Below, piece by piece: positions 6,312 to 23,774 of a DNA stretch of 23,774 nt. Where the stretch lies: positions 1-23,774 of the forward strand of contig JBHHXT010000061.1 of NCBI GenBank assembly GCA_046757165.1. Direction: 5' to 3'. Source of the stretch: a bacterium (GTDB lineage: Bacteria; Zhuqueibacterota; Zhuqueibacteria; Oceanimicrobiales; Oceanimicrobiaceae). The position numbers and the translations under genes are program-made. Every line of letters begins with the position of its first letter. The first letter of the stretch is position 1. The notes below the pieces were generated by a model. It worked only from the letters and a program-made list of their open reading frames with translations. It was not told where the DNA came from and made no database searches.

Positions 6312-6325
6312 GAGATCCCTCCTTT

Positions 6326-6600: not shown

Positions 6601-6611
6601 TGCGAAAAGGC

Positions 6612-9197
6612 TCAGGTTCTGTCCCCTTCCAAACGATAGAGTGCATTGAAAATCAATTTGAACGTTCCGAACGTCTGACCCCGGTGGTGTGGCCGGAAGG
6701 CGTAGAGAATGGCGACCCCCTTTCCTACCGGTATTTCTGCCAGCGCGAGTTTATTGAGCAACCGACTTTCACCCACGGCCCAACCGCTCTGCAACAGGTG
6801 GCGGTTGCCGAAAAAACCCGTCTCCCGAATTTCCTGGTTGTATATTTTTGCGGTCAACACGACCGGTCTGTTTTTGTAGATCGAGATTCTGGGGAGCAGC
6901 CCGTACGTCAAAGGAGAGGTCAAATCCAGGTGGAGTTCAAACAAACTACCGGGCGCAAAGTAGTCCTTCCGTTCCACGCCCTTCAAGGTGTTGGTCGCCG
7001 GCAGATTGAGCTTCTCAATGGCAAAATTGCACGCCTCGCCCATGAAGAGCACTTTGCCGCCAGCCTGGAGAAACTTCAGAATCCGCTCCACACCGATTTT
7101 GCCGATGCCCCCTCTGAATTCTTTCCTGACCCGGGGCTCACCAAAGGTCGGCTCGCCAGCCTTTTCGGATTTGCCAGTCAGAATCCAGTTCGTATCCTGG
7201 CTCCCGAAGATCAGAACATCGAAATTGTTCTCGAGCCTGGTTCTGGTCTTGAAATCTTCATTGTGCAGGATGGTGTATTCGAAACCGAACTTGTCAAATA
7301 CCAACCTGAGCCACCCTTCATCGTACGCCCATGGAATCCAGGGCTGGTAGATGGCAACACGTGCCGGGCGGACCTTTTTCAGGCTTGCTTTTGGCGGTTT
7401 CGCGATCGGCATAAGAGGGACTTCGAACTGGCCAGCGGCCTCCTGGACGGCTCTGCTTTTGCCCGGCACTAGCTGAACCAGGAAGGCCCCTTTTCGCAAA
7501 TCGTCGTCCGTGGGCTCGAGCTGATAAATATCCACCCCCCGGTCCATAAGATGGTTGGCGAGGATGTAGCTGTGATTGAGCCGGCGTTCAATCATGACCC
7601 AACCGGAGTCTGGCTGGCTGCTGGCTATCTGGAGTCGAGGCTCGGTAAAGTGCTTCATCTCGACTTCAAATGGCCTCTGCACGGCCACGGCTTTGACGCC
7701 AAACTGCAAGGGCAGCGTCCAGGCAGTCACATCGTAGGGCTGGCGCGGTGGGCCGCCGGGATACTCCAGCAAGTTCGGGTACTGCTGTATCTCGAACAGG
7801 TCTTTGACATACGCCCGCGCCGGCTGCGCCAGCGGCACAATATAGGCGCCTTCGTGGAAGGTGCCGTCGCTGGTGGAGAAATCGGCATCGGCGCGGTAGA
7901 TATCCACATTCGCAAACCGCAGCCGGCGCAGCATCTCGATGGCGTTGTTCGGGTCATGCTGCACCGCCGGAACGACATAAGCAAACGGCCCACCGCGCTG
8001 CCCGGCCGCAATCGCTTCTTTGTTGAGACGATAAAAGTTCCGTTTGTATTTTTCTTTGTAGGTAGCTGCGAGGTCCAACATGGAATAGGTGGCCGCCTTC
8101 TCGAATTCGATGATGTCGCGCAGCCGCCACCACCCGCCAAGCCACGGGTCCAGGAAGTTGGTTTGTTGCGAATATTCCGGCAGGTCGATACCCATACCCC
8201 GCAGGCTCGTTTTTGGGAAAAAAATCGGCGTCGCAATTCGCACGCTGGCCGCCTCGGTCAAAATGCCGATGCGGTTGTGCCACAGTGGCGTCTTGGACAT
8301 GGTGCCCTCGAAAAACGCATTGAAAATCGTGCCCGTCACAACCCCTTGGAACCCCTGATCGTGCAAATCTGAAACAACGTGTTTGCCCAGGGTATTCACG
8401 TGAGCCATGAGCGAGGGCGGCACATTCGGATTCACGGGGTCCGAATACGGCGGCAAGAACAAGCGCGCTCCCCGCGAGCCCATCTGGTGCTGGTCCAGCA
8501 CGATCTCCGGATGCCAGTCATGATAGAGCACTTTGGCAACATGCTGGCTCTCGACAAGATTGAAAAAAAACCAGTCGCGGTTGTTATCGTGGTCCGCGTA
8601 GTGGTGGTATTTCATCGGCATGCGGCTGCCCTCATGCTCGGTGCCCACGTCTTTCAAATACCACTTCGTCACCATGTCCTGGCCATCCGGGTTCAGCGAC
8701 GGCACCAGCAAAACGATGACGTTATTTCGTATTTTCTCGATTTGCGTATCAGATGACGTGGCCAGCTCGTAGGCCAGCTCCACCGACTCCTGGCTGGCGG
8801 CAATTTCGGTGGCGTGGATGTTCAGGGTGATCAAAAAAACAACCTTCCCCTCCTGGATCAAAGTTTCCGCGATGCTCTCTTTCAGGGTATAAGGTCGTGC
8901 CAACTGCTGCTGGATGTCTTGGTGCTTTTCGAGATTCTGCATGGTTTCCTCGGCACTGATGATGGCCATGATCATGGGTCGGTCGAGCGTCGTTCTGCCC
9001 AACTCGAGCACTTGCGTACGCGATGAAGTCTTACCGAGCATGCTGAAGTAAGAAACGATTTGGCCCCAATTTATCAGCCTTCTGTCTGCGCCCATCTGAA
9101 AACCAAAGGTGGCTTCCGGGGATGGAATCGGTTGGGCCACCAGAGTCGCGTTTAGAAATAGCACACTTGCAATGACCACCAGAACCTTCTGTTTCAT
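6612..9197 (-). CDS. Secreted M14-family zinc carboxypeptidase-like protein with a C-terminal class I GATase-like domain
   Basis: Signal peptide (MKQKVLVVIASVLFLNATLVA|Q), IHATE (HxxE), NPDG, DNNRDW, DQHQMG, PYDVTAWTLP, DEGW.R.VFD. Confidence 0.88.
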   Translation of the reverse strand: MKQKVLVVIASVLFLNATLVAQPIPSPEATFGFQMGADRRLINWGQIVSYFSMLGKTSSRTQVLELGRTTLDRPMIMAIISAEETMQNLEKHQDIQQQLARPYTLKESIAETLIQEGKVVFLITLNIHATEIAASQESVELAYELATSSDTQIEKIRNNVIVLLVPSLNPDGQDMVTKWYLKDVGTEHEGSRMPMKYHHYADHDNNRDWFFFNLVESQHVAKVLYHDWHPEIVLDQHQMGSRGARLFLPPYSDPVNPNVPPSLMAHVNTLGKHVVSDLHDQGFQGVVTGTIFNAFFEGTMSKTPLWHNRIGILTEAASVRIATPIFFPKTSLRGMGIDLPEYSQQTNFLDPWLGGWWRLRDIIEFEKAATYSMLDLAATYKEKYKRNFYRLNKEAIAAGQRGGPFAYVVPAVQHDPNNAIEMLRRLRFANVDIYRADADFSTSDGTFHEGAYIVPLAQPARAYVKDLFEIQQYPNLLEYPGGPPRQPYDVTAWTLPLQFGVKAVAVQRPFEVEMKHFTEPRLQIASSQPDSGWVMIERRLNHSYILANHLMDRGVDIYQLEPTDDDLRKGAFLVQLVPGKSRAVQEAAGQFEVPLMPIAKPPKASLKKVRPARVAIYQPWIPWAYDEGWLRLVFDKFGFEYTILHNEDFKTRTRLENNFDVLIFGSQDTNWILTGKSEKAGEPTFGEPRVRKEFRGGIGKIGVERILKFLQAGGKVLFMGEACNFAIEKLNLPATNTLKGVERKDYFAPGSLFELHLDLTSPLTYGLLPRISIYKNRPVVLTAKIYNQEIRETGFFGNRHLLQSGWAVGESRLLNKLALAEIPVGKGVAILYAFRPHHRGQTFGTFKLIFNALYRLEGDRT

Positions 9198-9384: not shown

Positions 9385-9542
9385 ACCCTGTCATTTCCAG
9401 GAAAACTCTGCCTGTCTGACAAGTTCATGAAAGATGCAGGCAAGAAGTAATATTTTCTTGGAATTTTTTGTGCAGAATCCTTAACTTTCTCCAAGTTAGT
9501 TCGCATGCTCAAATCTCTGACCGTACAAAAGGAGGCCAAACC

Positions 9543-9836
9543 ATGCACAAGAGAAACTTTTTGCTACTTTCGCTTTCGAGCATTTGCTGCCTGTTTGTCA
9601 CACACGCACCTGCCTTCGCGGATCCAATCGATGACATTCTTCGTATCTGGCAAGAAACCATCTGGCTCTGGGGCAAGCGTATTTTCTGGTTCTTTGGTGT
9701 GGCATCGGCGATCACGATCGCCGCCTCTCCGGCCAATCGCAAGAAGGCGCTCTACGTTTTGGGAGGGGTCATCTTATTTTATCTTTCTCCCCTTTTGATC
9801 GATTTTATTCAGCAGGCGGCTGGCCGACCATTCTAA
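9543..9836 (+). CDS. T4SS pilin-like protein, copy 1 (VirB2/TrbC/TraE-like)
   Basis: GGAGG RBS; 26-aa signal ending AFA|D; 71-aa mature region with two hydrophobic helices split by a basic NRKK loop. Lies upstream of virB3/virB4. Confidence 0.8.
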   Translation: MHKRNFLLLSLSSICCLFVTHAPAFADPIDDILRIWQETIWLWGKRIFWFFGVASAITIAASPANRKKALYVLGGVILFYLSPLLIDFIQQAAGRPF

Positions 9837-10697
9837 GCATTTCGACAGATCGGACGATATGTCGCAATTAATGGCGAGCCTGCGGCAAGTATCGGTCAAA
9901 CATTGTGAAAATAATCAACTGAACCGTTAAGAATCTTTAACAGTTGCCGCAGTGCCAAACGATAGTTAACGGCGGACACCATCGAGCAAGCCCCGACTGT
10001 CTCGAGGTCAGCAATGGTCGAGATATTATTCTGGAAAAAGCTTTTTTTAGTTTTCAGGTAGATAGACAAGACAAGATCTTTCATAAATGACAAAAACGGA
10101 CGCCCCGATTGAGGAAATTGGGAATATTCACAAAAGCCCGAACAGCCCGGAACCAGACAGGATCCCGGGTCGCAGGAGCGAATCGCAAAAAATAGCGAAA
10201 ATTTTTGTTGCTTTTCATGGGAGCTTTTTGTTATTTTAGGAGTAGAACTAATTATAAATTGGGGAATTGCAGCGGTTTCACCTGGACAAGGAGGGGGAGG
10301 CATTCCTAACCACCAGGTTAAATCACCATCATGCCTTTCAACACGGCCTCACCCAATTTGTCGCTCATGCAAGTGTGCACCCGCAAGCTGCACCCGACCT
10401 GCAGTCAAGAATGGCGAAGCACGTTGGTTGTCGGCACGGCATTGAAAGGCGCCTTGATGAAGATGACGAATCAAAAAATCGAACACGCTCAGCACTGGAT
10501 GGAATCTTACTGCATTTCTCCCCCACGTTCTGATACGGGGCTTTGTCGCCAAAAAGCCGTCGCGAAAAATAACCAAAACGCCTGTCGTGCGGGTAACCTC
10601 ATATACGCAACTCTATCGCCTTTTGAAAGTAAGAACGACTTCGCGTGGGAGATTTTCGCGATATACGCTATCGAACGACAAGATTAGGGAGGCACGT

Positions 10698-10991
10698 ATG
10701 TACAAAAGAAAACTATGGTTGCTCACGCTCGTCAGCGCATATTTCCTATTCTTATCGTACTCCTGGGCCTTCGCAGACCCAATTGATGACATACTTCGTA
10801 TCTGGCAAGAAACCATCTGGACATGGGGAAAACGGATTTTCTGGTTCTTTGGGGTTGGCGCGGCCATTGTCATCGCGGCTTCACCGGACAATCGCAAAAA
10901 GGCGCTCTATGTGTTAGGAGGTGTCATACTGTTCTATCTTTCTCCTTTGCTCATCGATTTCATCCAACAGGCGGCCGGCCGGCCTTTCTAG
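10698..10991 (+). CDS. T4SS pilin-like protein, copy 2 (VirB2/TrbC/TraE-like)
   Basis: GGAGG RBS and ATG 10698. Mature region is 66/71 identical to copy 1. Directly precedes the virB3-like gene. Confidence 0.82.
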   Translation: MYKRKLWLLTLVSAYFLFLSYSWAFADPIDDILRIWQETIWTWGKRIFWFFGVGAAIVIAASPDNRKKALYVLGGVILFYLSPLLIDFIQQAAGRPF

Positions 10992-11064
10992 GGATTGTCC
11001 CTGGTCACGGGTCAGCGACAAAATGACCTGACCGGGTGAGTGGGAACTAATTTCGATAGATGTA

Positions 11065-11343
11065 ATGGAAACACCGATCGAGCAAACGCTATCCAAGCCG
11101 ACTCTGCAGTTCGGCCTGCGTCCGGTGGACTATCTGGTCCTGGTCCTCGTGGCGACGCTGGGCAGCTTTTTTCTTTCCAAGCTCTGGCTAATTCTCATTA
11201 TCCTCGTCCTCTTTCTTGTTTTTCGCTATGTCAACAAGAGCAAGCGTCGTTATTTCTGGTCCTCCATCTACATCTGGTTGATCACAAACACACACCTGCA
11301 CATCAAGCAAACCCGAAAACTACCCCCTTTGCTTAACCAATAA
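11065..11343 (+). CDS. VirB3/TraF-like small membrane protein
   Basis: 92 aa; L.KP...FGL motif followed by a hydrophobic hairpin. Canonical position between the pilin and VirB4. Confidence 0.75.
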   Translation: METPIEQTLSKPTLQFGLRPVDYLVLVLVATLGSFFLSKLWLILIILVLFLVFRYVNKSKRRYFWSSIYIWLITNTHLHIKQTRKLPPLLNQ

Positions 11344-11353
11344 GGAACAAAGG

Positions 11354-13819
11354 ATGTTTTTTAGCAAGCAAAGCAGTCTGACTGACAATTTTCATTCTCA
11401 TGGCATCTTGGAGTTCAACGGCAAAGGCTATCACGTGCGCAAAGACGGTGCGATCTCCATCGTCTGGAAGGTGGATGCAGGCAATGCGTTACGATTCACC
11501 GAGCCGGATTTTCAAGGGTACACGGCGCAGATGACCAAAACCATCAACCTGCTCCCCCCCTATACGCAAATAGATTTCCTGTACGACAAGTATGAAACGC
11601 ATTGGGACGCACACCTCAAATCAGATCTGACCACCAATCGCCCGGAAATTGTCAAGTTGATGGAAATTCGCCGGCGTGAGATTGGCGTGCGAGCTGCCTA
11701 CACCCTCGATGTCTATCTTATCGTGACCTTCAATCATCTCATCCAGTACAAAGCGCCGATGCGGCAGGACTTCTTTCTCTTCAACCGCAACAAGTTCGCG
11801 CAGTTGACGAGGGGAAAGTTCGAGCAGGATGGCCGGCACATCGAAAATACCGCCGCTCTGATTGAAAATGAGCTGCGCTGTTTCAGCTTTAGCCGTTTGA
11901 GTGGAAATGACATTACCGACTTGCTGAAATCCTATTACAACCTGACCCACCAGCCGGCAGAGCTGAACGTCCGCAGAGAGCAGTTCAACGGGGACCTGCT
12001 CTACAAGAACTTCTCATCGAAATATGATGACCTGGTTATTGGTCTCGACCACATGCTGGTCGCATCCATGATCGAGCTGCCGGACAAAGCCGTCAATCCG
12101 ATTGAAGTTGACAAACGGTTTCTGAGGAGTCCGCTGGAGTGTTTCCTCAGCCTGCCTTTCCGACTCCGTCTCGCGGTGCGAATGGAGAAGATGCCACACG
12201 ACAAGGCGCGGACGTATATCACCCTCAACAAGCTCATCAACAAACCCCGCTTCAACAATCTGGCCAGCATGAAGATGATCGAGCTGGACGGCGATGAAAA
12301 CGGGCAGGTCTATCCGGGCATCTCCAATCTCATCGAGTTTGAAAAAGATTTTCTGGCCGACATCTCTCTCACCTTGATGACCTGGCATCCCGACAAGGTG
12401 CGGCTGGCCGAGCGGCAGGAGCGCATCATCTCGGCTTTTACGCGATTCTTCAATTCCAGGGGAATGATCGAGTATGGACAGGACGCCCTGAACGCCTTCC
12501 TGTCCTGTGCGCCCGGGAATTATCCCTACCGCCGAATCACCGTCCGCGGGGCGCATCTTGGCCACTTCGTCAACCTGAGCGACCACTACAAAGGGATGAA
12601 CAGTGGCGTGCCTTTGATCAACACCAACGACGCGCCCGTCTACTATGACCTCTTCTCCACCGAGAACGCCAACTACAACTCGCTCATCGTCGGGCCCTCG
12701 GGCAAGGGCAAGAGTTTTTTTTGCAACTCTTTGATTTTTAACTACATCGCCCAGGGCGTGCAAGTGATCGCCCTGGACTTGAGTGGCAGCTACAAGCCTT
12801 TGGCCGATGTTCTGCGTTCAGATTACATTCAGATCGACAGGCGCAAGCCAAACTATCTCGACCCGTTTCACTATTTCAACCCACTGAGCCATCAACATGA
12901 CTCCCCCGAATATCTCGAGACGCTGACTTACTTGCAGTCTTTTCTCAATTTGATGGTCAAAGAGGAGTCAGACACCAAATACATGAGCAAGGACAAGAAG
13001 GCGGTGATTTATGATGCCCTGGAAAAATTCTTGCAGGCACGGCACGGCGGCGCCATAAACATCCATACCTTCTGGAATTTTCTCCGAGAAAATGGGGACA
13101 ACATTTTTGAGGACGACACGACATTTTACAGATATGTGGTCAAGACGCTCAGCTATTACCTGGAGAAATCCGCCCTCAAAATATATTTTGATCCCGGCAA
13201 CCAGAATCATCTGAGCATAAGCCGAGACAAGCCGGTCGACTTGATCGCGTTTGACCTGAAAGGAATCGAGAAGGAAATCGAGCTCATGCCGCTGTACTCC
13301 AACCTATTGAGCATGCTGGTCATGAACGCGTTGCATCGAGACTTCAAGAGATTTCTGTTTATCCTGGATGAGAGCTGGAAGGCCCTGGAGAGCTCGGAAA
13401 TCATCTATGGACTGGTGCGGGAAACCGGCAGAACGTCGCGCAAGCACTTTGGCTCTGTTGCAGCGCTGACGCAGAACATCAAAGACTTGCAACAGGGAGA
13501 CCTGGGAGCCTCTGTGCTCACAAACAGCTACAGCAAATTTCTCCTGCCGCATTCCGGCGAGGATGTCGAGACGGCGATCCAGGTCCTGGACATGACGCGG
13601 GCTGAGCAGCGGGCTTTTCGTAATCTCAAGGAACACGAGATTCTCCTTTCTCGTGAAGGGGAGCCCATCATATTCCGGATTCCGTTTTCCAAACAGGATT
13701 ACTGGATCTGGACCACCCGACCCGATGAAGTACACAAACGCAACCAACAAATGCGCTACGACAAGAATGTCATCAGTGCAATCTCCGCTCTTGCCGAAAC
13801 CAACCCCACACAGGAATGA
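11354..13819 (+). CDS. virB4: VirB4-family T4SS ATPase (Bacteroidota TraG-like)
   Basis: 821 aa; NYNSLIVGPSGKGKSFF.N (Walker A), D.SGSY..L, FDLKGI, FILDESWK (Walker B), RKHFG....TQ...DL. Confidence 0.93.
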   Translation: MFFSKQSSLTDNFHSHGILEFNGKGYHVRKDGAISIVWKVDAGNALRFTEPDFQGYTAQMTKTINLLPPYTQIDFLYDKYETHWDAHLKSDLTTNRPEIVKLMEIRRREIGVRAAYTLDVYLIVTFNHLIQYKAPMRQDFFLFNRNKFAQLTRGKFEQDGRHIENTAALIENELRCFSFSRLSGNDITDLLKSYYNLTHQPAELNVRREQFNGDLLYKNFSSKYDDLVIGLDHMLVASMIELPDKAVNPIEVDKRFLRSPLECFLSLPFRLRLAVRMEKMPHDKARTYITLNKLINKPRFNNLASMKMIELDGDENGQVYPGISNLIEFEKDFLADISLTLMTWHPDKVRLAERQERIISAFTRFFNSRGMIEYGQDALNAFLSCAPGNYPYRRITVRGAHLGHFVNLSDHYKGMNSGVPLINTNDAPVYYDLFSTENANYNSLIVGPSGKGKSFFCNSLIFNYIAQGVQVIALDLSGSYKPLADVLRSDYIQIDRRKPNYLDPFHYFNPLSHQHDSPEYLETLTYLQSFLNLMVKEESDTKYMSKDKKAVIYDALEKFLQARHGGAINIHTFWNFLRENGDNIFEDDTTFYRYVVKTLSYYLEKSALKIYFDPGNQNHLSISRDKPVDLIAFDLKGIEKEIELMPLYSNLLSMLVMNALHRDFKRFLFILDESWKALESSEIIYGLVRETGRTSRKHFGSVAALTQNIKDLQQGDLGASVLTNSYSKFLLPHSGEDVETAIQVLDMTRAEQRAFRNLKEHEILLSREGEPIIFRIPFSKQDYWIWTTRPDEVHKRNQQMRYDKNVISAISALAETNPTQE

Positions 13820-13823
13820 AATC

Positions 13824-14711
13824 ATGAGAACAAAAGCGGCTCTACTGTTCTGGATCGTTCTCCTGGCAACCATCGTCCCGCCTGCTCGCGGGCAGTTTTT
13901 CAATCCATCGGACGCGGCAGTGATCGCCAAACTGGGTGAAATCCTCCGCACGCACCGCCAGCATCTGGTGGAGGCGATCAGAACAGCACGCGGGATGGAG
14001 CGCACATTTCAGACCTTACAACATCTCGATGAATACGAGAAGAGCTTACGCCGGGACATCGGCTTCATTTCAGGCCTCGACTTGACCCGCCTCGACGACC
14101 TCGAACGGCTTATTCTTTTCGGCGACCAAACAGATTTTTACTTTCGCAGCCTCACCGGCAAAATCAATAGCGAGATGTACAACCTGAGCCAGATGAAGCG
14201 ATATGGGGACGGCTTCCTGGAATCGATGGACGGTCTCGGCATGGTCGATGCCGACTTGATCAGAGCCATCTACGCCAATGACAAGACGCTGGAAGAGTTT
14301 GGCATCACGCCCGAGGAGGCGGCGGCCCTGATGCAGCAGCTCTCGGTTGAATCCACCCTGCTCGATTTGTACCAGGTCAAGGGCACCGAGAACCTCATCA
14401 AGGCCTTGACTGAGCAGGGCGAACACCTGAAGCGCGTGGCCCGAGACTCGAGCGTCAAGCTCGACCAGGGGCAAAGAGTCATGCTGCTAACAAAGAGCGA
14501 GCAGAGCTACATTGAAGCCCTGAAATACCAGCAGCAGCTTGCTGAGAAGCTGAAGGAAAGAAATGCCAATATTTCACGCAGACTTCTTCTGAAGGGCGAG
14601 ATGGAAGCTGAGATAAGAGAGCTGGAGAAGTTCTATCAGTGGCATGCCTCTCTGGAGCGAAATTTGGGTTTCTTTGATACCGAATATATCAAGCGCCAAA
14701 ATATCAAGTAG
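13824..14711 (+). CDS. Secreted helical/coiled-coil T4SS component (VirB5/TraI/TrbJ-like)
   Basis: Signal peptide ending ARG|QFFNPSD; helical Q/E/L-rich body; lies between VirB4 and TraJ. The family is inferred mainly from position. Confidence 0.6.
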   Translation: MRTKAALLFWIVLLATIVPPARGQFFNPSDAAVIAKLGEILRTHRQHLVEAIRTARGMERTFQTLQHLDEYEKSLRRDIGFISGLDLTRLDDLERLILFGDQTDFYFRSLTGKINSEMYNLSQMKRYGDGFLESMDGLGMVDADLIRAIYANDKTLEEFGITPEEAAALMQQLSVESTLLDLYQVKGTENLIKALTEQGEHLKRVARDSSVKLDQGQRVMLLTKSEQSYIEALKYQQQLAEKLKERNANISRRLLLKGEMEAEIRELEKFYQWHASLERNLGFFDTEYIKRQNIK

Positions 14712-14724
14712 GGGGAGAGCAAAA

Positions 14725-15648
14725 ATGTTCCAGCAGATTCAAGGAATCTACACGCAAAGCAACGAGGTCCTGTCGTCCATTGTCGACCTCGCATGGAAGA
14801 TCTTGCCTGTTGTGGCACTTGTGATGCTCCTGGCTTATGTCTTCGATGCCCTGAAGAACAACCGCGGCAATTACACCGAGTTTCTGTTCAGGATCGGAGT
14901 TGCCGTCCTCGCCCTCGCCAGCTACAAATGGTGGAGTGTTGAAATCGCGACCCTGATTATCGAAATCGCAAAACTGTTCAAAAGCGACGGCGTCTCGGAT
15001 TACTATAGCGTGGTCATCGAGCTGTTCAAGAACCATGCGGGCAACGAGGCGGCCTGGTATGACGTGGGCATCCAGTTCCGTGGGTTTTTCTACTACTCCT
15101 TGCTGTGGATAAGCGTTGCTCTCGTCACTCTGGCGACGGTGTTTTTTGAAATGCTGCAATTCTGGGCGCAAGCCTTTCTCTGGATACTGGGTCCCCTGGC
15201 CATCGTCTTGACGCTCTTTCCCAACTTTCGCGGCGCATTTCTGAGCTGGCTGAACCGCTATATCGCTGTCAGCTTCTGGTCGGTCATCTACATGGTCGCC
15301 ACCAGAATCTTCAACGGCTTGATCGGAGAGACCTTTTCCGACCTGTGGGTGGGAAACAAGACAGGCATTGACCTGTCCGGCCAGGGCTTTCTGATTATGA
15401 AGCTGGTCATTTTCAGCGTCGCCTTCTTCTTCGTGATTATCCGCATCCCTGCCATGACGGGCTGGCTGACCCAGCAGAGCTTTGCGAGCGTCAGCACCGT
15501 CATCGGCACCGGAGCGGCCCTGGGGGCAAATAAATTGATGGCGGTCGGCAGAACCGTTCGATCGACAGTCGGCAAATTCGGCAAAGCACGCCTGCAGCAA
15601 ATGGGCAGCGCCATTTCCAACAAGATCTCTGGAGGGGTGGGTCCATGA
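14725..15648 (+). CDS. traJ: VirB6-like polytopic membrane protein (Bacteroidota TraJ-like)
   Basis: Multiple TM segments. ILGPLAIVLTLFPNFRGAFLSWLNRYIAVSFW and IP..TGWL match my recollection of the CTn TraJ signature (ILGP.AF....F......W..RYI.V..W). Confidence 0.8.
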   Translation: MFQQIQGIYTQSNEVLSSIVDLAWKILPVVALVMLLAYVFDALKNNRGNYTEFLFRIGVAVLALASYKWWSVEIATLIIEIAKLFKSDGVSDYYSVVIELFKNHAGNEAAWYDVGIQFRGFFYYSLLWISVALVTLATVFFEMLQFWAQAFLWILGPLAIVLTLFPNFRGAFLSWLNRYIAVSFWSVIYMVATRIFNGLIGETFSDLWVGNKTGIDLSGQGFLIMKLVIFSVAFFFVIIRIPAMTGWLTQQSFASVSTVIGTGAALGANKLMAVGRTVRSTVGKFGKARLQQMGSAISNKISGGVGP

Positions 15649-15662
15649 GTCGCGTTGACTCG

Positions 15663-15723
15663 AGCCGGACGAGCCGCGCAAGAAACGCGGGATTTAGCAA
15701 CGTTTTCTTGCCATAAAATTACA
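15663..15723 (+). repeat. Family B-related element inside the T4SS operon
   Basis: agccggacgagccg matches 553-566 at 13/14; ttgccataaaattaca matches 622-637 at 13/16. Internal hairpin gcaagaaacg...cgttttcttgc. Confidence 0.55.
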
Positions 15724-15733
15724 TGAGGACAAG

Positions 15734-16438
15734 ATGATTTCTTTTGAGGAAAATGATAGGCCACCTTCGGAGGCTCAGGAGACAACCCACAGCGAGCCCG
15801 AGCAGAAACCACAAGGGGCGGACGAGATGTCCGGCTTCATCTGGCGGACGTTCGTGGGCAACAAGAAGAAGGAAGACTTTTTCAAGAGCTCTCTCTTACT
15901 GCTCATCATCATCAACGGAATCCTCGGCTTTTTCTTGTACAATCAAAAAACGCAAAAATCAGTCTACGTCATCGACGCCGGCGTTCCAAAACTGGCGCAC
16001 CTGGTCGCCAGCGACGTTCGGGTTGATGAGCAACTCCACTTCTTCATCAAAATATGGGCGAAACTGCTGTTTGAAGTGACGGGTAACAACTATGCCCAGA
16101 ACCGGGAAACCCTGAAAGAGCTTTCGAGCCAAAGCCTGATGAAACGCATCCTGACGGCCGAAAGTGCCAGCAGCAACAGGCTCATCAAGGAAATCATCCA
16201 ATCTGAAACCATGCGCTTGAAGGTGGCGGACATCATCATTGACAAAATCGAACGACGCGGCAGCATTATCACTGTCGCTTTCAGTGAGATCATACAGATC
16301 GATTTGCCCGATGGCAGTGAAAAATATGTCACCCGCCACAAAGCCGAAATCATCTCGACGAAATACACCTTGAATGGAATTGGCCTGGTGATGGTGGACC
16401 TCGACAATCTTTGGAAGCTAGACAGGAGATTAAAATAA
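15734..16438 (+). CDS. traK: VirB8-like bitopic protein (Bacteroidota TraK-like)
   Basis: Single TM followed by KSVYVIDAGVPKLA (TraK-type IYVLD.G.P.LA), F...F.VT, and C-terminal N..GL. The start could alternatively be ATG 15827. Confidence 0.75.
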   Translation: MISFEENDRPPSEAQETTHSEPEQKPQGADEMSGFIWRTFVGNKKKEDFFKSSLLLLIIINGILGFFLYNQKTQKSVYVIDAGVPKLAHLVASDVRVDEQLHFFIKIWAKLLFEVTGNNYAQNRETLKELSSQSLMKRILTAESASSNRLIKEIIQSETMRLKVADIIIDKIERRGSIITVAFSEIIQIDLPDGSEKYVTRHKAEIISTKYTLNGIGLVMVDLDNLWKLDRRLK

Positions 16439-17460
16439 TGAATCTACCCGAGCATTATGCCAAGCTGAACAAGAAGTGGATCATTCTGGGGGTGATCGGC
16501 TTTGTTTTGATTTTTCTGACCGTCTCTTTCCTTGCCTCCTACTATGAATACAAAAAGAGCGGCCCCATTTCGGAAGAGCCCGTCAGCACATACGATGAAG
16601 ATAGCTTCGCGCGCTTGCATGAGGAATTTATCAAAGACAAACCGCACGGCAAAGACCAGAAAGAGATCCTGGCGGAAATTGTCAAAGAAAGCAAGAAGGC
16701 CGACCCAAGAGTAAGAAGAATCAGTACTGAAAGCCTCTATTCAAAAGGCACGTTCGATACCCTGGCTGTCAATTGTGGCATCTTACTCGAAAAATACAAA
16801 GAGCTGGTCATAAAATGCAATGAGCTGGAAAAACAGCTGGGAAAGAAGAAAGGCAAAACCGCCTCCGGCAAGAAAAAGGGCAAATCTTCCGCATCGCGTT
16901 TTGCAGCTAAACCTCCCGCTACCAGCCGCGGATTTGATTACACCCGATACATTCGCACCGGCACAAGCAGTGAATTGCGCAACGAGGGCGGCGGCGGCAG
17001 CTTTGGCAAAAGCGCGCAGTTCACCTGGGCCACGCTTTCTCTGCGCCAAAAGCAGAGGGTCTTCAATCAGTCGGTGGTCGCTTTTGATGTCGCGGAAGCT
17101 TTCGAGCTGCAGGGCTCGAGCATCCCGCGTTCGGCCGTGGTGGAGGGGGTCGCGCAAGTGAGTCGCGGCCGCGGCAGAATCTTCATCACTTTTCGCAACA
17201 TCTACACAGAGGATCAGACCTTCGATATCGAAGGAGAAGTCTTCGCGCTCGACAGGTCGCGTGGCCTGAATGTCTTTATACACGGAGAAAGCAGTGTGGC
17301 GGAAAGCTTCAAACGCGAAGCCACAGACCTCATCGGTTTGCTCGACCCGTCCCGCACCGGCATCGGGCGAAACGTGATCCAGGACACAGATGTCGGACAG
17401 GAAGTCTATGGTGTCCTGGACGCGGGAACCATGGTGCTGGCCAACATCAGAAAACGATGA
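16438..17460 (+). CDS. traM: VirB10-like core complex protein (Bacteroidota TraM-like)
   Basis: Coupled to traK by TAATG. N-terminal TM, coiled coil, K/G-rich linker, and a C-domain IPR.AVV.G.AQ...GRIFI.F.NI......I.GEVFALD...GL.V ending L.AGT.V. Confidence 0.78.
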   Translation: MNLPEHYAKLNKKWIILGVIGFVLIFLTVSFLASYYEYKKSGPISEEPVSTYDEDSFARLHEEFIKDKPHGKDQKEILAEIVKESKKADPRVRRISTESLYSKGTFDTLAVNCGILLEKYKELVIKCNELEKQLGKKKGKTASGKKKGKSSASRFAAKPPATSRGFDYTRYIRTGTSSELRNEGGGGSFGKSAQFTWATLSLRQKQRVFNQSVVAFDVAEAFELQGSSIPRSAVVEGVAQVSRGRGRIFITFRNIYTEDQTFDIEGEVFALDRSRGLNVFIHGESSVAESFKREATDLIGLLDPSRTGIGRNVIQDTDVGQEVYGVLDAGTMVLANIRKR

Positions 17461-17490
17461 CGTGAAACGGCAAACGTGAAACGTGAAACG
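17461..17490 (+). repeat. 7-bp tandem repeat (CGTGAAA CGGCAAA CGTGAAA CGTGAAA CG)
   Basis: Begins immediately after the traM stop codon. Confidence 0.8.
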
Positions 17491-17571
17491 AATTCTTATG
17501 GCACCAGTGACAAATTCGCTGTTGGCGAGGAGGGCAGCGGGCTTCCAAGTCCGGCCCCAAAAAGGCAATAG

Positions 17572-18486
17572 ATGAGCACTAGCACGACAAAAACTCCCGG
17601 CACCTGGCTGCTGACTCTGATCCTCCTGTTGGGTGGTTTCGCTCTGGCACATGCCAATGGCAGCGACATCGTGATGTATCTCGAGATCGGTACGCTCTCA
17701 GAGATCATCATCCCCGAGCCGTACACCACGGTCCAAATCCCGGTACAGATTATCGAGATGCGCGATGTTCCCGGGCGCAACAAGCGCGTCATTACCGTGC
17801 ATCCTATCGTTCCACAAAAGACCAAAACCAACATCAGAGTCTATACGCAACACTACGATTTTAATATCCGCATTTTTCTCAATTGGACGGGGACCAGGAC
17901 CACGGAAAGTCTCGATCTCGGCAAGTTTGCGCAGAAGATCACACCCTGGAAAGACACCGCTGCGCCAAATGGCATAGTGGATAATGGCGCAAAGACCAGG
18001 AATGGCGCGTCCGGAAACGGCTCCGATATCCAGCCAGACAGACCGGCCACTTTCGGAGACTTCAGCTTCAAGAAGCTGTACAAAGTCAGGCCGGATTTGC
18101 TCAAACCAAACAAGCACGCGCCTGCCATGGTGAAAAACCGCGTCGTGTTTGCCATTGACCATATCTTTCACCACAAAGGCAAGCTGGTTTTCAAGGCCAC
18201 GCTCTGGAACAAATCCAAGGTCCCTTATAACATTCTTCAACTCACTGTGACATACAAGGAGAAAGTTGGCATCCCGGTCCTCAATCAACACGAATCCAAG
18301 TCGCTGATCCTGGCGCCATTCTACGAAAAATATTCGAGAAAAATTGTGGCGCCGGGCAAAAAATCTCACATCATCTACGTCACCTCCAAACTAAGTCCGC
18401 AAGACACGGGATTCTTTAATTGTGTTCTGGTTGAAAAATTCGGCACCCGCAACTTTGATTTCAATATTCCCTCATACATCAAATAA
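17572..18486 (+). CDS. traN: VirB9-like core complex protein (Bacteroidota TraN/DUF4138-like)
   Basis: Signal peptide. C-domain L.NKS.VPYNI..L.....EK ... IVAPGK....IY...K.......F...L.EK.G.RN..F.I follows the TraN pattern. Confidence 0.8.
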   Translation: MSTSTTKTPGTWLLTLILLLGGFALAHANGSDIVMYLEIGTLSEIIIPEPYTTVQIPVQIIEMRDVPGRNKRVITVHPIVPQKTKTNIRVYTQHYDFNIRIFLNWTGTRTTESLDLGKFAQKITPWKDTAAPNGIVDNGAKTRNGASGNGSDIQPDRPATFGDFSFKKLYKVRPDLLKPNKHAPAMVKNRVVFAIDHIFHHKGKLVFKATLWNKSKVPYNILQLTVTYKEKVGIPVLNQHESKSLILAPFYEKYSRKIVAPGKKSHIIYVTSKLSPQDTGFFNCVLVEKFGTRNFDFNIPSYIK

Positions 18487-18496
18487 TCGAGGTAAG

Positions 18497-18988
18497 ATGA
18501 GAATGTTTCTGACCTGTCTGCTGGCATTCGTACTCAGCAGCCATGTGTACGCGCAATATCAAAAAATGGCCAGGGCCAGCTCCATCAACCTGTCCGCCGC
18601 TGCTTCCTATGCCAACCTGGGCTGGAGCAAGCAGCTCAGCAACAAGACCAACCTGGCCATCAGCGGTTCTTATTTTCAGGATGAGGCCAATTCGATTACC
18701 TCGGACAACTTTAGCGCCAACCTGGGGCTGAGCCGCTGGCTCTTTCGTATCGGAGACGCTTACATCAGTGGCGGGGTGGGCGGATTTGTTGCCCACACTC
18801 ATGCCGAGAGCGCAGCCGATACGGAGGACAATGATGTCAGCTTCGGGATTGACTTGCGCGGAGAGCTGGAATTCTATCCCACCTGGTGGCTGGTTCTGTT
18901 CGGGGAAGTCAAGCAAATGGAGTTCTTTACCTCCGATTTTCTCAACAGGAAGTTTATTGTTGGTGGGGGTGTGAAGATTGTCTTTTGA
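18497..18988 (+). CDS. traO: Small outer-membrane beta-barrel (Bacteroidota TraO-like)
   Basis: Signal peptide VYA|Q, amphipathic beta-strands, GELEFY, and a C-terminal beta-signal GGGVKIVF. Directly follows traN. Confidence 0.7.
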   Translation: MRMFLTCLLAFVLSSHVYAQYQKMARASSINLSAAASYANLGWSKQLSNKTNLAISGSYFQDEANSITSDNFSANLGLSRWLFRIGDAYISGGVGGFVAHTHAESAADTEDNDVSFGIDLRGELEFYPTWWLVLFGEVKQMEFFTSDFLNRKFIVGGGVKIVF

Positions 18989-19053
18989 GAGGGTCTGCTG
19001 TGACTCACTCCTTTCAAAATAATGGAATGCAACGATAGCAAGGGGAGCAAGCT

Positions 19054-20820
19054 TTGAAAGTACACTCATCTGCAATCATAACACTCATCGTTCTCACGGC
19101 GGTCAGTTGCTCGGACCGCAAGGAAGACAACCCCCTGACCGCAAACAATCAACCGCCGACGCTGCAAGTGCTGGGCTTCGCGTCGGATACGCTGGTCTAT
19201 GTCAATGAAAAGGCCTACGAGTTCGACTTTGTGGCAACAGATGATGGCCAAAAGGAGCTCGAGGTGCTAGCAAAGGCCATCGGCAACTCGGGCACGGTCA
19301 CGATCGTTGACAAAACCGAAGCAGGTCTTTACAAGGCCGAGTTTGTGCCGTCACGGAAGGGCGAACATCTCATCGAAATCTCTGTCTCTGATGGGCTCGA
19401 GACTGCGACCGCCACGTTGTCGGTGTTTTTTGGCGACAATCAGCTCCCGGTGGCGGTGATCCAGTTCCAGGAATTGGCACGGGATAATCAGAATCTCTTG
19501 TTTACTTATGAATTCGATGCCGGCAATTCGAAGGACAAAGACAGCAGGATTGTCAAGGCGACCTGGAACCTGGATGGCGTGGTCGTAGAAACACCGTTCG
19601 AGCAGAACTTGCAGCACACCTTCAACTACTACGCCGATTACAAGATCGATTTGACGGTCGAAGACGAGTACGGCGGCATCAACTCGACCAGCGCCACCAT
19701 CGACAATTCCAGACCCCTGGCCAGTTTTATTATTCGACCGGTTCCGGAGGCAAAGAACGGCGACCAGATCACCCTCGATGCTGCAGCCAGTGTGTCACCG
19801 CGGGGACAAATCAGCGAATACGAATGGCTCCACCAGCGCCAGCAGGGCGTGGATATCCTGGCTGAGCTGAGCGACAATCTTTTTCGCTATCAGGTCAACA
19901 TGCCGGTCGGGGAAAATTTCATCGGCCTGGTGGTCATGGATGTCGAGGGAAATGTTTCAGACACGACTTGGGTGAGCTTTAATGTGATCAACCAACCGCC
20001 CCAGGCTGATTTTGGTTTTCGCACCGAGCTGGAGCGCATTATCATTACCGACAACCTGTCGCAGGATACCGACCCGGGCGATACCCTGAGCTATAGCTGG
20101 TTCCTGAATGACTCGCTGGACAGCGCCAAACAAAACGAAGCCCTGCCCGTCTTCGACCTGCGGGGCGCCGTCTATCAGTTGACCCTCACCGTCACCGACA
20201 ATCACGGCGCTTCCGGCTCGAGGACGCGCTCCGTCAGCGTGCCGGGCGTGCCGGAGGCGCACTTCGTTTTTCCCGGCGGGGTTGAAGACAACTTCGAGAC
20301 CGGCAACGGTGAGAGCGTCGTCATCGATGGCAGCCAATCTGTCGCCGGCAATGAAAGCCGGGGCATCGAATCCTTCACCTGGTTCCTGCGTGGCGACAAC
20401 TTCCCGGTCGAAACGCTCTCTGACGGCAGAGCGGATGAGATCACCCTGCAGATGAGTCATCAAATCGGCGAATATGAAATCGGCCTCAAAATTACCAACC
20501 AGGAAGGCATGGAGAGCGCCACAACGTGGAAGAAGCTGATTCTGCTCAACAGCGCTCCAATCGCCGAATTCACGTGCGAATTTCAAGCCTTTCTGGAAGG
20601 CATTGTCTACAGAATCCTGACCAATGATTCCACGGATCCCGACCCCAGCGATTCCCTCTCCTTTCACTGGTTCCTCGATGGGGTTGAACAAGAGCAGACC
20701 GGTCCCACCCCTACCTTTACGCGGGACCACAGCTCCTTTGTAGACACGATCACGCTGCGAGTCGAAGACCTGTTTGGCGGTACCGGTGAGAAGTCCATCA
20801 CCGGCGGCTGCAGCGAATAA
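19054..20820 (+). CDS. Lipoprotein with about six tandem PKD/Ig-like domains (adhesin-like)
   Basis: TTG start with AAGGGGAG RBS; lipobox TAVS|C. Domain starts NQPP, NQLP, NSRP, NQPP, GVPE, NSAP; PKD motifs FDA..S.D.D, Y.W, LTV.D..G. Confidence 0.85.
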   Translation: MKVHSSAIITLIVLTAVSCSDRKEDNPLTANNQPPTLQVLGFASDTLVYVNEKAYEFDFVATDDGQKELEVLAKAIGNSGTVTIVDKTEAGLYKAEFVPSRKGEHLIEISVSDGLETATATLSVFFGDNQLPVAVIQFQELARDNQNLLFTYEFDAGNSKDKDSRIVKATWNLDGVVVETPFEQNLQHTFNYYADYKIDLTVEDEYGGINSTSATIDNSRPLASFIIRPVPEAKNGDQITLDAAASVSPRGQISEYEWLHQRQQGVDILAELSDNLFRYQVNMPVGENFIGLVVMDVEGNVSDTTWVSFNVINQPPQADFGFRTELERIIITDNLSQDTDPGDTLSYSWFLNDSLDSAKQNEALPVFDLRGAVYQLTLTVTDNHGASGSRTRSVSVPGVPEAHFVFPGGVEDNFETGNGESVVIDGSQSVAGNESRGIESFTWFLRGDNFPVETLSDGRADEITLQMSHQIGEYEIGLKITNQEGMESATTWKKLILLNSAPIAEFTCEFQAFLEGIVYRILTNDSTDPDPSDSLSFHWFLDGVEQEQTGPTPTFTRDHSSFVDTITLRVEDLFGGTGEKSITGGCSE

Positions 20821-20858
20821 GGGTCTCGAGATTTCAAATCCTAAACGGGAGTCCGAAA

Positions 20859-21125
20859 ATGGCCTTGATCTACAAGATTGTCGAACTCAACACCAGAACC
20901 CTGATGAAGGGTCGCCTGAGGCTCAGACATGTGGAAGACATCCTCAACAAATGGTCGGCTGACGGCTGGCAGCTCGACCGCATCATGACCGGCGCTGATT
21001 ACTCCTTTTTGAGCGGCAAGAAGGAGGTCTACCTCATCATCTTCAAGCGCGAGGCGGAGCAGGCACCAAAGCAGGAGAAAGAGACTACCGCGCAAGAGGT
21101 CGAGGAGGGCAACGGACCACAATAA
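20859..21125 (+). CDS. DUF4177-like small protein
   Basis: YKIVEL...LNKWSADGWQL...LIIFKR pattern followed by an acidic tail. Confidence 0.75.
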   Translation: MALIYKIVELNTRTLMKGRLRLRHVEDILNKWSADGWQLDRIMTGADYSFLSGKKEVYLIIFKREAEQAPKQEKETTAQEVEEGNGPQ

Positions 21126-21246
21126 CAAGGTCTTCGTTGTTTATGGCCACGATGAAACAGCAAGAAACCATCTTGAGACAATGCTTAGGCGGTGGGGACT
21201 GGAACCACTAATTCTTGACCAGCGTTTTCTTCAACAGATTCAGTGA
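21121..21246 (+). pseudogene. Fragment of a TIR-like nucleotide-binding domain gene (CAP12/Pycsar-type TIR)
   Basis: Not in the ORF track. Manual translation NNKVFVVYGHDETARNHLETMLRRWGLEPLILDQ, after which similarity breaks. No in-frame start lies between the stop at 21010-21012 and 21121. Confidence 0.8.
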
Positions 21247-21250
21247 ATCG

Positions 21251-21280
21251 GCCCGGCGCAGCACAGTCATCCGTTATGCC
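21251..21280 (+). mobile_element. Probable right half of an integron attC site (R' GTTATGCC)
   Basis: GTTATGCC at 21273-21280 is the exact complement of GGCATAAC at 22195-22202, as expected at the two ends of a cassette. No left half was found. Confidence 0.55.
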
Positions 21281-21532
21281 GAAAAGTCAAGAATAAAAAA
21301 TAATGCAAGAAGTACAGCGACGGAAATTTCCAAACTGAAGTATCCCGGGGCATAGGAGGAGAGGCGAGCATCATTCCCTCTCTCTCCTACTTCTCAACGG
21401 TTGATCTTGAAACAAAACAGGTAGCAAAAATTGATATGATTTCTCCAGATTCAACTATTGCTTTTACAGGCAAATATACTTAAAAAAAAGACAGGTTGTG
21501 AAATTTCAATCATACAAAACGTGGTGATAGCA

Positions 21533-21763
21533 ATGACTAAAGCATTATTAGAAAGAATGATCTTAGAAGAAACCAAGAATTTGTCTGCTGACACTTTGCA
21601 TGAAATCTTGGATTTCATAAAATTCAAAAAGCAAAAGACCTTTGGGAAAAAGTCCTTTGAAAAAAATATGGAAACTGAATTAAGCGATCTCAATGAAATG
21701 TCATTAATACATTTAGAAGAAGAATTTTCAAACTATAAAGAGCTTTACCCGCGTGAACATTAA
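21533..21763 (+). CDS. Putative antitoxin (DUF2281-like)
   Basis: 76 aa with a L...L.EILDFI.F...K motif; overlaps the downstream PIN gene; AT-rich. Confidence 0.7.
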   Translation: MTKALLERMILEETKNLSADTLHEILDFIKFKKQKTFGKKSFEKNMETELSDLNEMSLIHLEEEFSNYKELYPREH

Positions 21764-22145
21764 TTACGTCACTGATACAATGGCTTTGGTTTTACGACTT
21801 GAGAAAAGAAGATTAGGTCGAAAAGTAAAAGCTATTTTTGAGGATGTAGAAAAGGGAAACATAAAATTAATGGTTCCTGCGATGGTGTTGGCTGAAATTG
21901 GGTATTTGTCGGAAAGAAATAAAATTGATACCAATTTGAATGAAGTCAAAGATTATTGTGAGAGACATCCTACAGTTCAAATAGAACCCATAACGGAAGA
22001 AATAATTCACAGAAGTTTTGAAATTGATGATAAGCCAGAATTGCATGACAGAATAATTGCTGGAACTGCCTACCTAAGAAATTTAGAACTTGTTACCAAC
22101 GATCCAATAATCATAGATTCCAAATTTGTTTCTACTGTTTGGTAA
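21753..22145 (+). CDS. vapC: PIN-domain VapC-like toxin
   Basis: YVTDT.AL, VP.MVLAE, ELHDRIIAGTA...L.LVT.D; the PIN acidic residues are present. Confidence 0.9.
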   Translation: MNINYVTDTMALVLRLEKRRLGRKVKAIFEDVEKGNIKLMVPAMVLAEIGYLSERNKIDTNLNEVKDYCERHPTVQIEPITEEIIHRSFEIDDKPELHDRIIAGTAYLRNLELVTNDPIIIDSKFVSTVW

Positions 22146-22193
22146 GAAATTCAAACTTGCATTCATTAAGAATCAGTTGCTCTCAGCAAATTA

Positions 22194-22326
22194 GGGCATA
22201 ACATTTTTTTGCAGCCGATTGCGGGGCTCCTGCGTAATTTCCAGTTTTGCTTTTTTTCGAGGTTCCTTCTTAAGGGCAGCTTTGGCGCATTGAAATCCGG
22301 CAACGGCTGAAAAACTCGTTATGCCC
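22194..22326 (+). mobile_element. Integron attC recombination site (133 bp)
   Basis: R'' GGGCATAAC (22194-22202) and R' GTTATGCCC (22318-22326) form a perfect 9-bp inverted pair. L'' TTGCAGCCGATTGC pairs with L' GCAACGGCTGAA leaving extrahelical bases. It lies downstream of the cassette ORFs. Confidence 0.85.
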
Positions 22327-22824
22327 ACAATTCTTTGGGTAGTTTTTGCGATTTCTATAGTCATCATTTTTCGTGTCGACATTAGTCGTCTGTTGAAGAC
22401 TCTTAGCTGGAGAATTCGTACCGGTGCCTCTCTGAAGGTAGGTGTGATTGAAATCGGACAGAGTTATGTCTCACCTGGAGCTAACCTGTCAGACAAATCT
22501 GGTTATGTTGAAACTAGGAAAGATGAGAATCAAGCCCGCTATACCCAGAGAGAGCAATATTATGTACCAAATAGAAATGTTCAGCTCGTGCACAAGCTAG
22601 CACCATCGGAACGCCCCGGACAGCTTTATGATATGTTGATTTGTCTAATCCCTCATGGATATGGCGCAACCCTTGCGTCCGTTGCGTGGGTCGAATACTA
22701 TTTCGGAAAAAGTCGGGGAGAGCGAATCTTTATTTCCAGAGACCGTGCAAGGAGTTTTTCTGTTGCCACGTCAGCATACATCGCCTTTACTTTTGGCCTA
22801 CGCCGAAAAGCATTACTCAGATAA
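22321..22824 (+). pseudogene. Membrane-anchored protein with a prokaryotic YEATS-like domain, probably truncated
   Basis: N-terminal TM plus LKVG.IEIG, then YD..I.LIPH, V..VEYYFG..., F.SRDR...F....SAY. The ATG lies inside attC R', and the sequence after SAY (about 22780) belongs to a different gene. Confidence 0.55.
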
Positions 22825-23132
22825 ATACACTCGAATTGAGGTGCGATTCCGAGGACCGCTTTGTTACATTGACGCTTATGCCGAGCCCTGGGTTCCGTCT
22901 GACTTTGACCCAAAGGTATTTGGGGAATCACGTGAGGAAGTATTTTGAGCGGCTACGAAATACTCCAATCCATCTTTGTCGGCTGCGCTATTTCGGAGAT
23001 GAAAATCGTTGGACGTTGGCTTTCTATACATATAGCCAGGAAAAATATGAGCCATCGGTTTTCAACAGTGGGAGTTTCGACGGTACCCCTGAGGAAGCCT
23101 TTGAGATCTGTGCGGTGTTTTTGACGGATTGA
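22790..23132 (+). pseudogene. 5'-truncated, frameshifted conserved hypothetical gene
   Basis: AYAEKHYSDKYTRIEVRFRGPLCYIDAYAEP...ESREE continues as YFERLRNTPIHLCRLRYFGDENRWTLAFYTYSQEKYEPSVF...TPEEAF if one base near 22940 is removed. No start codon. Confidence 0.6.
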
Positions 23133-23254
23133 TGGCACCGGGTCGGCGTGATCGGACAAAGCGTCGAGACCAAACACGCGCTCGCGCTGAGTTTGCAGCC
23201 CCTGCGAGCATGGAGTGAGGGTGCCAGCAGTTGCGGCTGGTGTTTACATATTGC

Positions 23255-23761
23255 ATGAAAAAGATAAGCGCAAAAGACAGAACAGAATGGCGAGCGTGGC
23301 TATCTGCCAACCATGATAAAGTGGCGGAAGTCTGGCTGATATTCTATAAGAAGGAGACCGGCAAAACATCCGTTGAGTACGGAGCTTCCGTAGAAGAGGC
23401 GCTCTGTTTTGGATGGGTTGATAGTATCATTAAGAACCTGGATGAGACCAAATACGCAAGGAAATTCACGCCGAGAAGACCCCATAGCAAGTGGTCACCA
23501 TCGAATATAAAGCGTGTCGAGAAGCTGATAGAAGAAGGATTGATGACCGGGCATGGCATGCAAAAGGTAGAGGCTGCCAAACGGGATGGCAATTGGGACC
23601 ACCCGGTGCAAAAACCTGAGCTGACCTTCGAAATCCCGCCAGAATTCTCACAGGCATTGAACCGAAACAAGGCAGCCAAGGAAAACTTCGACAAGTTGGC
23701 AACCACCTACCAAAAGCAGTATATCGAAAGCATAACCTGCGCTGCCATTCAACGCACTTAA
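23255..23761 (+). CDS. YdeI/OmpD-associated family protein, C-terminally truncated
   Basis: EWRAWL..NH....EVWL.FYKK, VEEALCFGW.DS, FTPR...S.WS..N..RV..LI..G.M. The expected W...AK..ETR..RI ending is replaced after KQYI. Confidence 0.85.
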   Translation: MKKISAKDRTEWRAWLSANHDKVAEVWLIFYKKETGKTSVEYGASVEEALCFGWVDSIIKNLDETKYARKFTPRRPHSKWSPSNIKRVEKLIEEGLMTGHGMQKVEAAKRDGNWDHPVQKPELTFEIPPEFSQALNRNKAAKENFDKLATTYQKQYIESITCAAIQRT

Positions 23762-23774
23762 ATTGATTAACATA

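Follow-up and report, generated by a model that had tools for sequence, protein, structure and literature searches.

Type IV secretion systems (T4SSs) without a relaxase (MOB) have been described as frequent products of exaptation, with one present in 18% of genomes (PMC3158045; PMC3548315), and they typically still require a type IV coupling protein (T4CP), according to the same paper that defines the mating-pair formation (MPF) class MPF_B (PMC4027160). The T4SSs lacking a T4CP that are covered by PMC12857230, namely Ptl, Brucella VirB, ComB and Trw, all belong to host-associated pathogens, whereas a phylum-wide chromosomal T4SS has been published for the Patescibacteria (PMC12102498). Here we describe a T4SS gene cluster at positions 9543–21125 of a 23,774-nt contig (hereafter the window, which is the complete contig C61 of assembly G000) from a metagenome-assembled genome (MAG) of the phylum KSB1, an uncultured deep-sea-vent bacterium and not a member of the Bacteroidota. 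With a probability of roughly 85%, the cluster is a former conjugative MPF apparatus that lost its T4CP, relaxase and integrase once and early, and that has since been kept chromosomally in one KSB1 family, with many losses and several moves. Its long residence and non-autonomy are supported, and it adds to the known T4SSs without MOB and T4CP a case in which domestication is well supported. A survey of literature on KSB1/Calditrichota T4SSs, conjugation and relaxases, mostly of non-subscription sources and with supplements (possibly holding CONJscan tables) outside its scope, found no publication on this system.

The initial annotation of the window had described the cluster as devoid of relaxase, coupling protein and integrase. 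Indeed, none of these genes, nor a tRNA, was found inside the window, and profile searches of the whole assembly (6.09 Mb, 531 contigs, completeness rated 99.98%) for a MOB or T4CP module elsewhere came back equally empty. PF02534 and PF12696 revealed no T4CP genome-wide, with positive control searches, and a profile of the T4CP from a second KSB1 T4SS type (see below) found nothing in G000 (best E 0.23). The genome has one FtsK and no extra FtsK that could be a T4CP. Genome-wide searches for MOBP, MOBF, MOBB, MOBV, MOBQ, MOBH and MOBT relaxases, with positive controls for all seven, found none; PF03432, PF18976, TrwC and the MOBV, MOBQ, MOBH and MOBT models had no match, the searched Pfam families being those which we take to represent the respective MOB classes. 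The MOBC search was uninformative, since its control was silent too. The sole PF10412 match, on contig C59, falls at the tail end of a HerA-like ATPase of 1,817 aa and was rejected as a T4CP. The C59 locus (L057:996–19999) carries ATPase-like genes of very large size (1,434 and 1,817 aa) adjoining genes that resemble cysteine desulfurase and PAPS reductase, and possibly represents a phosphorothioation or defence island.

The same deficit recurs in relatives. Seven of the remaining 20 family genomes, all from different genera, encode VirB4 orthologues (55–80% identity), bringing the carriers to 8/21 genomes and eight genera with G000 included. Gene order and operon start are alike in all eight loci. 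No T4CP or relaxase was linked to the carrier loci among the flanking ORFs (open reading frames) compared, with the upstream side visible in 7/8 and the downstream side in 7/8, and no tRNA was found in the eight loci. In G003, G004 and G005 both flanks lie on a single contig, and the flanking ORFs examined include neither a T4CP nor a relaxase; G004 has a tyrosine integrase ~19 kb upstream of the cluster. No close plasmid relative was detected (best ~24–26% identity), two scans of viral contigs were empty, and a metagenome scan returned, among the matches listed, only distant VirB4s. Further VirB4 relatives at 33–43% identity are P0015–P0018 and P0021. In G009, a 339-aa gene of no known identity is inserted between traN and traO (L210:3004–4023).

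The initial annotation had also called the cluster long-resident, from a base composition judged by eye, and quantification upheld this view. In codon usage and tetranucleotide profile the cluster resembles its host. The tetranucleotide distance of the cluster falls at the 57th percentile of 297 G000 windows, and the GC content at third codon positions (GC3) of its genes at the 30th–98th percentiles, except for the two pilins (13th), while the right-flank genes are foreign by composition (0–8th percentile). Host repeat families occupy two operon spacers, traJ–traK and traM–traN, as had been proposed. In the comparison with G005, each of the 11 genes has saturated synonymous sites (pS 0.76–0.88; 0.81 for the flanking M14 peptidase gene), with nonsynonymous divergence (dN) of 0.14–0.38 and hence dN/dS below ~0.13 if synonymous divergence (dS) is at least 3. 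Between the two G000 pilin copies, dN/dS is 0.03–0.05. Selection on the cluster is purifying. The window stretch is contained in four sequencing runs, all hydrothermal-vent metagenomes of a single study; read depth over the cluster equals that of the left flank in all four, three of which may be the source, and one contig spans 9359–21982, contigs being prone to drop rare variants. No credible excision joint for the cluster was found; two cluster-skipping joints (5408–23727 and 9384–23721) were rejected, as their 25–27 nt sides lie inside multicopy repeats.

As initially annotated, the cluster comprises 12 intact co-oriented genes: all 12 ORFs at 9543–21125 are open, and the core operon at 9543–20820 is intact. 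The features are as follows.

9543..9836, plus strand: VirB2-like pilin, extra copy (PF04956, E 5e-5, below cut-off)
10698..10991, plus strand: VirB2-like pilin, ancestral copy (PF04956, E 2e-4)
11065..11343, plus strand: VirB3/TraF-like membrane protein (PF05101, E 7e-5, 23.5 against a cut-off of 23.9)
11354..13819, plus strand: VirB4 ATPase, Walker A and B intact (PF19044, 104.6 bits)
13824..14711, plus strand: secreted all-helical protein, tentatively in the TraI/VirB5 slot (weak matches, position)
14725..15648, plus strand: TraJ/VirB6 polytopic membrane protein (PF04610, E 2e-5; TIGR03782, E 2.5e-5; both below cut-off)
15660..15705, no strand: host intergenic repeat in the traJ–traK spacer (14 matches on 14 contigs)
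15734..16438, plus strand: bitopic protein, tentatively TraK/VirB8-like (one transmembrane segment; TIGR03781; position)
16438..17460, plus strand: TraM/VirB10-like protein (PF12508, 33.7 against a cut-off of 25.1)
17461..17490, no strand: host intergenic repeat in the traM–traN spacer (41 matches on 25 contigs)
17572..18486, plus strand: TraN/VirB9-like protein (PF13595, 34.9 against a cut-off of 31.1)
18497..18988, plus strand: TraO-like outer-membrane beta-barrel (Atlas structure, TM 0.86 to the PF10626 cluster)
19054..20820, plus strand: lipoprotein with six tandem Ig/PKD domains, last core gene (PKD matches)
20859..21125, plus strand: DUF4177 protein, accessory (PF13783)
6612..9197, minus strand: left flank, divergent M14 peptidase (adjacency common to G005 only)
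21126..23774, plus strand: right flank, foreign cassette-like genes (PIN toxin–antitoxin pair, YEATS-like gene, truncated YdeI)

Profile searches lend support to the Tra assignments of the initial annotation, albeit weakly for TraI, TraK and the pilins. Pfam matches above cut-off were obtained for P-loop_TraG, Transposon_TraM, DUF4138 (TraN), PKD and DUF4177, and matches just under cut-off for VirB2 (twice), VirB3 and TrbL/VirB6. The Walker motifs are retained in 16/16 close VirB4 relatives. For the protein in the TraI/VirB5 slot, the weak DUF4141 and PF07996 matches (each in 2/18 members) and Atlas leads are accompanied by a low-confidence predicted model (pLDDT 51.5), whose fold search was uninformative, and a profile-based comparison to two plasmid proteins of Hymenobacter yielded no match. 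TIGR03781 (TraK) is matched by 2/16 family members (E 0.004), and the TraK-slot protein has no sequence match in the PDB. The TraO structure match involves predicted models on both sides; PF10626 is matched by sequence in 3/16 TraO members. The lipoprotein cysteine is present in 11/11 full-length rows, and the six-Ig/PKD protein, whose model has a pLDDT of 89.5, is retained in both KSB1 T4SS types; in fold searches with the whole chain, generic Ig repeats took up the match lists, in which TraQ had no entry. The two pilins and DUF4177, initially counted with the cluster, are present, but the pilin copy at 9543..9836 is private to G000 (1/8 carriers) and DUF4177 occurs in only 3/7 genomes with a visible downstream side (G000, G005 and G013). 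The final 72 aa of the two pilins are identical at 67/72 positions, and the ribosome-binding region of the ancestral copy is common to G000 and G005. The non-repetitive inter-pilin spacer (9837–10697, 860 bp) contains no credible ORF and no shared motif, and no conserved promoter or upstream motif was found among the cluster loci.

The cluster resembles MPF_B in layout, and the initially proposed label should read MPF_B-like rather than MPF_B. The gene order agrees, TraM and TraN homologues above Pfam cut-off adjoin virB4, and TraO is backed by predicted structure; however, all Bacteroidota Tra TIGRFAMs score far under their curated cut-offs on the cluster proteins. For VirB4, TIGR03783 gives 78.8 against a cut-off of 261.55, and the F-type TraC model TIGR02746 scores higher. 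Class-specific profiles for TraE, TraF, TraI, TraJ and TraK yielded generic or sub-threshold matches only. In a rough 164-row tree, whose deep nodes are unreliable, VirB4 stands apart from three Bacteroidota plasmid TraGs. The operon has no ORF slots for TraH, TraL and TraP, in line with the initial description. As a side observation, no gene within 14 kb of the tra operon of a Hymenobacter plasmid (L198:12540–22145) is annotated as a T4CP or relaxase, and the plasmid is typed as non-mobilizable.

The cargo-less T4SS, whose function the initial annotation had left open, has probably been turned to the cell's own use. A machine lacking its T4CP is unable to load DNA or protein from the cytoplasm, and we tentatively propose an adhesive pilus as its present function, at somewhat less than even odds. 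VirB4, together with VirB3, TraJ and TraK, would pull pilin out of the inner membrane; the outer-membrane exit would consist of TraM, TraN and the TraO barrel; and the pilus would extend, capped by the TraI/VirB5-like protein, with the six-Ig lipoprotein as a putative structural or adhesive accessory. Lacking a T4CP, the machine would stay in pilus-making mode and might mediate attachment to surfaces or cells. We favour this function because pilin and a tip-like protein have been kept, the pilin was duplicated under selection, the Ig-repeat lipoprotein is always present, and T4CP loss gives hyperpiliation in model plasmids, as reported for T4CP deletions in F and pKM101 (PMC13463995). The T4CP-less Trw system of Bartonella has been proposed to make adhesive pili (PMC12857230).

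Several observations weigh against domestication or against the pilus. Window-type VirB4 shares only 2/5 splits with rpoB (rho 0.06), and IQ-TREE supports only the G000+G005 grouping among window-type VirB4s, but an AU test does not reject the species grouping obtained with 24 genes (p-AU 0.29); vertical descent within the family is therefore compatible with the trees. The cluster is missing from 13/21 family genomes, several of them 94–98% complete, virB4 of G007 is in three pieces, and MAGs can lose mobile modules. Upstream neighbours differ, with five kinds among 7 genomes, and the expectation that relatives would keep the cluster beside the M14 peptidase failed, as that site is shared by only 1/7 (G005). 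In four other genomes, including two carriers, a different conserved gene adjoins M14, which argues that the cluster moved beside M14 in the G000/G005 ancestor. Flanks common to G005 and G009 (an inverted DegV/plsY block) and to G004 and G013 (a paralog-rich outer-membrane protein family) are weak and were not relied on. Patchy presence at variable loci in close relatives, which the initial annotation had named as telling against it, is thus borne out in part, but the set contains no close relatives, the other carriers representing different genera; sister genera have flanks in common, and the loci show no T4CP, relaxase or tRNA. Regarding function, the two pilins are near-identical and occur as two copies in 1/8 genomes, unlike the variable Trw arrays; G000 already has four secretin genes; and support for a VirB5 and an adhesin role is weak. 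Finally, 3/8 carriers hold unlinked MOBF mobilisable elements that could use the machine in trans.

This last point underlies the alternative that survives best, although we consider it unlikely and the initial annotation had not listed it: that the cargo-less MPF is a resident conjugation bridge, on which mobilisable elements that supply a T4CP and a MOBF relaxase themselves draw in trans. Among 167 KSB1 genomes (a tally that, like the other phylum-wide counts, includes two unpublished genomes, G158 and G162), four encode full-length TrwC, and three of these are window-type carriers (G004, G007 and G010). Within the family, MOBF occurs in 3/8 carriers and 0/13 non-carriers (p 0.042). Genome size, however, is greater in carriers (median 6.3 versus 4.7 Mb, p 0.004), and kin are not independent. 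In G004 and G010 a T4CP adjoins TrwC with no MPF nearby and unlinked to the cluster, the G010 element sits at a tRNA-Gly with an integrase, and in G007 the T4CP and TrwC pieces lie on two contig ends. However, five of the eight carriers, G000 included, have no MOBF element, another element resides in the VirB4-negative G141 (67% complete), and host preservation of the machine would remain unexplained. If mobilisable elements do use a resident machine, this would help answer where such elements find helpers. Also rather unlikely, in our view, is a variant in which the host domesticated only the conjugation bridge, that is, an attachment pilus into which MOBF elements plug their own coupling protein. 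The MOBF elements lie at L048:12105–16643, L050:10651–18336, L205:15948–20000 and L204:1–4268, and those of G004, G007 and G010 are ~40% identical.

DNA uptake as in Helicobacter ComB, in which a VirB4-driven pseudopilus would bring DNA to the periplasm and ComEC complete the import, is improbable. The same parts, VirD4 and VirB11, are missing in both systems (PMC12857230), and ComEC is present in G000; yet ComEC occurs in 43/46 genomes irrespective of the cluster, and secretins in 42/46 genomes and in 19/20 other family genomes, so the cluster replaces no missing uptake route. The cluster showed no anticorrelation with competence pili, the shared upstream motif sought among the loci was not found, and a candidate VirB5-like slot missing in ComB is retained here. 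Still more doubtful is a two-step exporter of periplasmic, Sec-exported substrates resembling Bordetella Ptl or Brucella VirB: T4CP-less systems are known to act in this way (PMC12857230) and the genome encodes many secreted proteins with sorting-like C-terminal tails, but none of the eight loci is flanked by a conserved gene that would qualify as a candidate substrate. Very unlikely is a live or decaying integrative and conjugative element in which the MOB module escaped assembly or recognition or disappeared recently. The contig does end at an insertion sequence (IS)-like terminus, the MOBC test was uninformative, and presence is patchy at variable loci with a broken virB4 in G007. Yet the same omission would be needed in eight genera, including the flanks examined in G003, G004 and G005, and against this reading stand the intactness of the genes at saturated dS, the host repeats, flat depth, and the lack of close plasmid relatives and of matches in viral contigs.

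A second T4SS type in the phylum differs with respect to the coupling protein. VirB4 of this kind occurs in 33/167 KSB1 genomes, one locus each, comprising 8 of the window type and 25 of a second type that is ~25% identical to it. The second-type loci (L030:5700–18116, L034 and L087–L105) have the order T4CP-pilin-VirB3-VirB4-TraI-J-K-N-M-PKD-TraO, with a divergent T4CP within the same locus in 19/23 examined; this T4CP was found in 24/167 genomes and in 0/21 of the window's family. In the second-type genomes searched (n = 23), no MOBP (0/46), no MOBF and no DUF5712 (0/31) were found. One KSB1 family carries the second type in 16/19 genomes. The second type tracks rpoB (13/18 splits, rho 0.80, Mantel p 0.0002), and its VirB4 has a dN/dS of 0.03–0.10 in five pairs; the row for the G151/G153 T4CP was left out, VirB4 having been picked in its place. 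With a T4CP and without a detected relaxase, the second type is a candidate protein-export system. If the bridge-only domestication of the window type were true, KSB1 would have retained two machines separately, of which one has a T4CP but lacks a relaxase (likely a protein exporter) and the other lacks both. Some second-type operons are interrupted by unrelated genes (L034:7291–12343, L089:1878–5783, L101:5547–10392 and L096:13067–14092), which encode BNR or subtilase proteins whose C-terminal tails are sorting-like, an Mrr endonuclease and, after virB4, proteins of 340–380 aa of no known identity.

The cluster is bounded in G000 as initially described, by the M14 peptidase on the left and by foreign cassette-like genes on the right. 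A gene fragment starting at 21126, directly after the DUF4177 stop, is presumably TIR/CAP12-like, and an attC-like imperfect hairpin (22196–22326, z −2.1) lies among the low-GC cassette-like genes. The contig end (23724–23774) was rejected as a second attC, being a multicopy IS-like terminus of 50 bases common to 30 contig ends; it truncates YdeI and breaks up the assembly, and since the window is a whole contig ending in it, linkage to the cluster is visible only as far as 23774. A second IS-like terminus is found at ~38 contig ends of G000. Elsewhere in the window (2532–5082) lies a pair of XPB helicase and Bax1-like nuclease (DUF790) genes, for which the top nuclease models are archaeal and the host bacterial.

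Among described systems, the MPF_B apparatus of CTnDOT (PMC4027160) shares with the KSB1 cluster the order pilin-VirB3-VirB4-TraI-J-K-M-N-O, the TraM, TraN and TraO families and an operon without VirB11. The KSB1 operon differs in its host, in a VirB4 only ~22–24% identical to Bacteroidota plasmid TraG, in ending in a six-Ig lipoprotein, in having no TraH, TraL or TraP slots, and in lacking T4CP, relaxase and integrase. Bartonella Trw is likewise chromosomal, T4CP-less and conjugation-derived, with a duplicated pilin (PMC12857230), but it derives from R388/MPF_T, has multiple variable VirB2 and VirB5 copies and belongs to a pathogen, whereas the KSB1 cluster usually has one pilin and resides in an environmental bacterium. 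Like H. pylori ComB, it lacks VirD4 and VirB11 and has VirB4 as its sole ATPase; unlike ComB, which has no VirB5 (PMC12857230), it keeps a candidate VirB5/TraI gene in a host that has secretins. The Patescibacteria T4SS is similarly lineage-level, chromosomal and relaxase-less in uncultured bacteria (PMC12102498), but has an MPF_FATA (monoderm) ancestor and is near ubiquitous, in contrast to the patchy, MPF_B-like cluster of the diderm KSB1. Compared with MOBless T4SSs generally, for which a T4CP is typically needed (PMC4027160), this KSB1 lineage lacks one in 8/8 loci. It would thus be a T4CP-less case that spans a lineage, descends from an MPF_B-like system and comes from a phylum that is environmental and uncultured, and KSB1 would offer a natural pair with and without a T4CP, in which the role of a T4SS after the loss of substrate coupling becomes testable.

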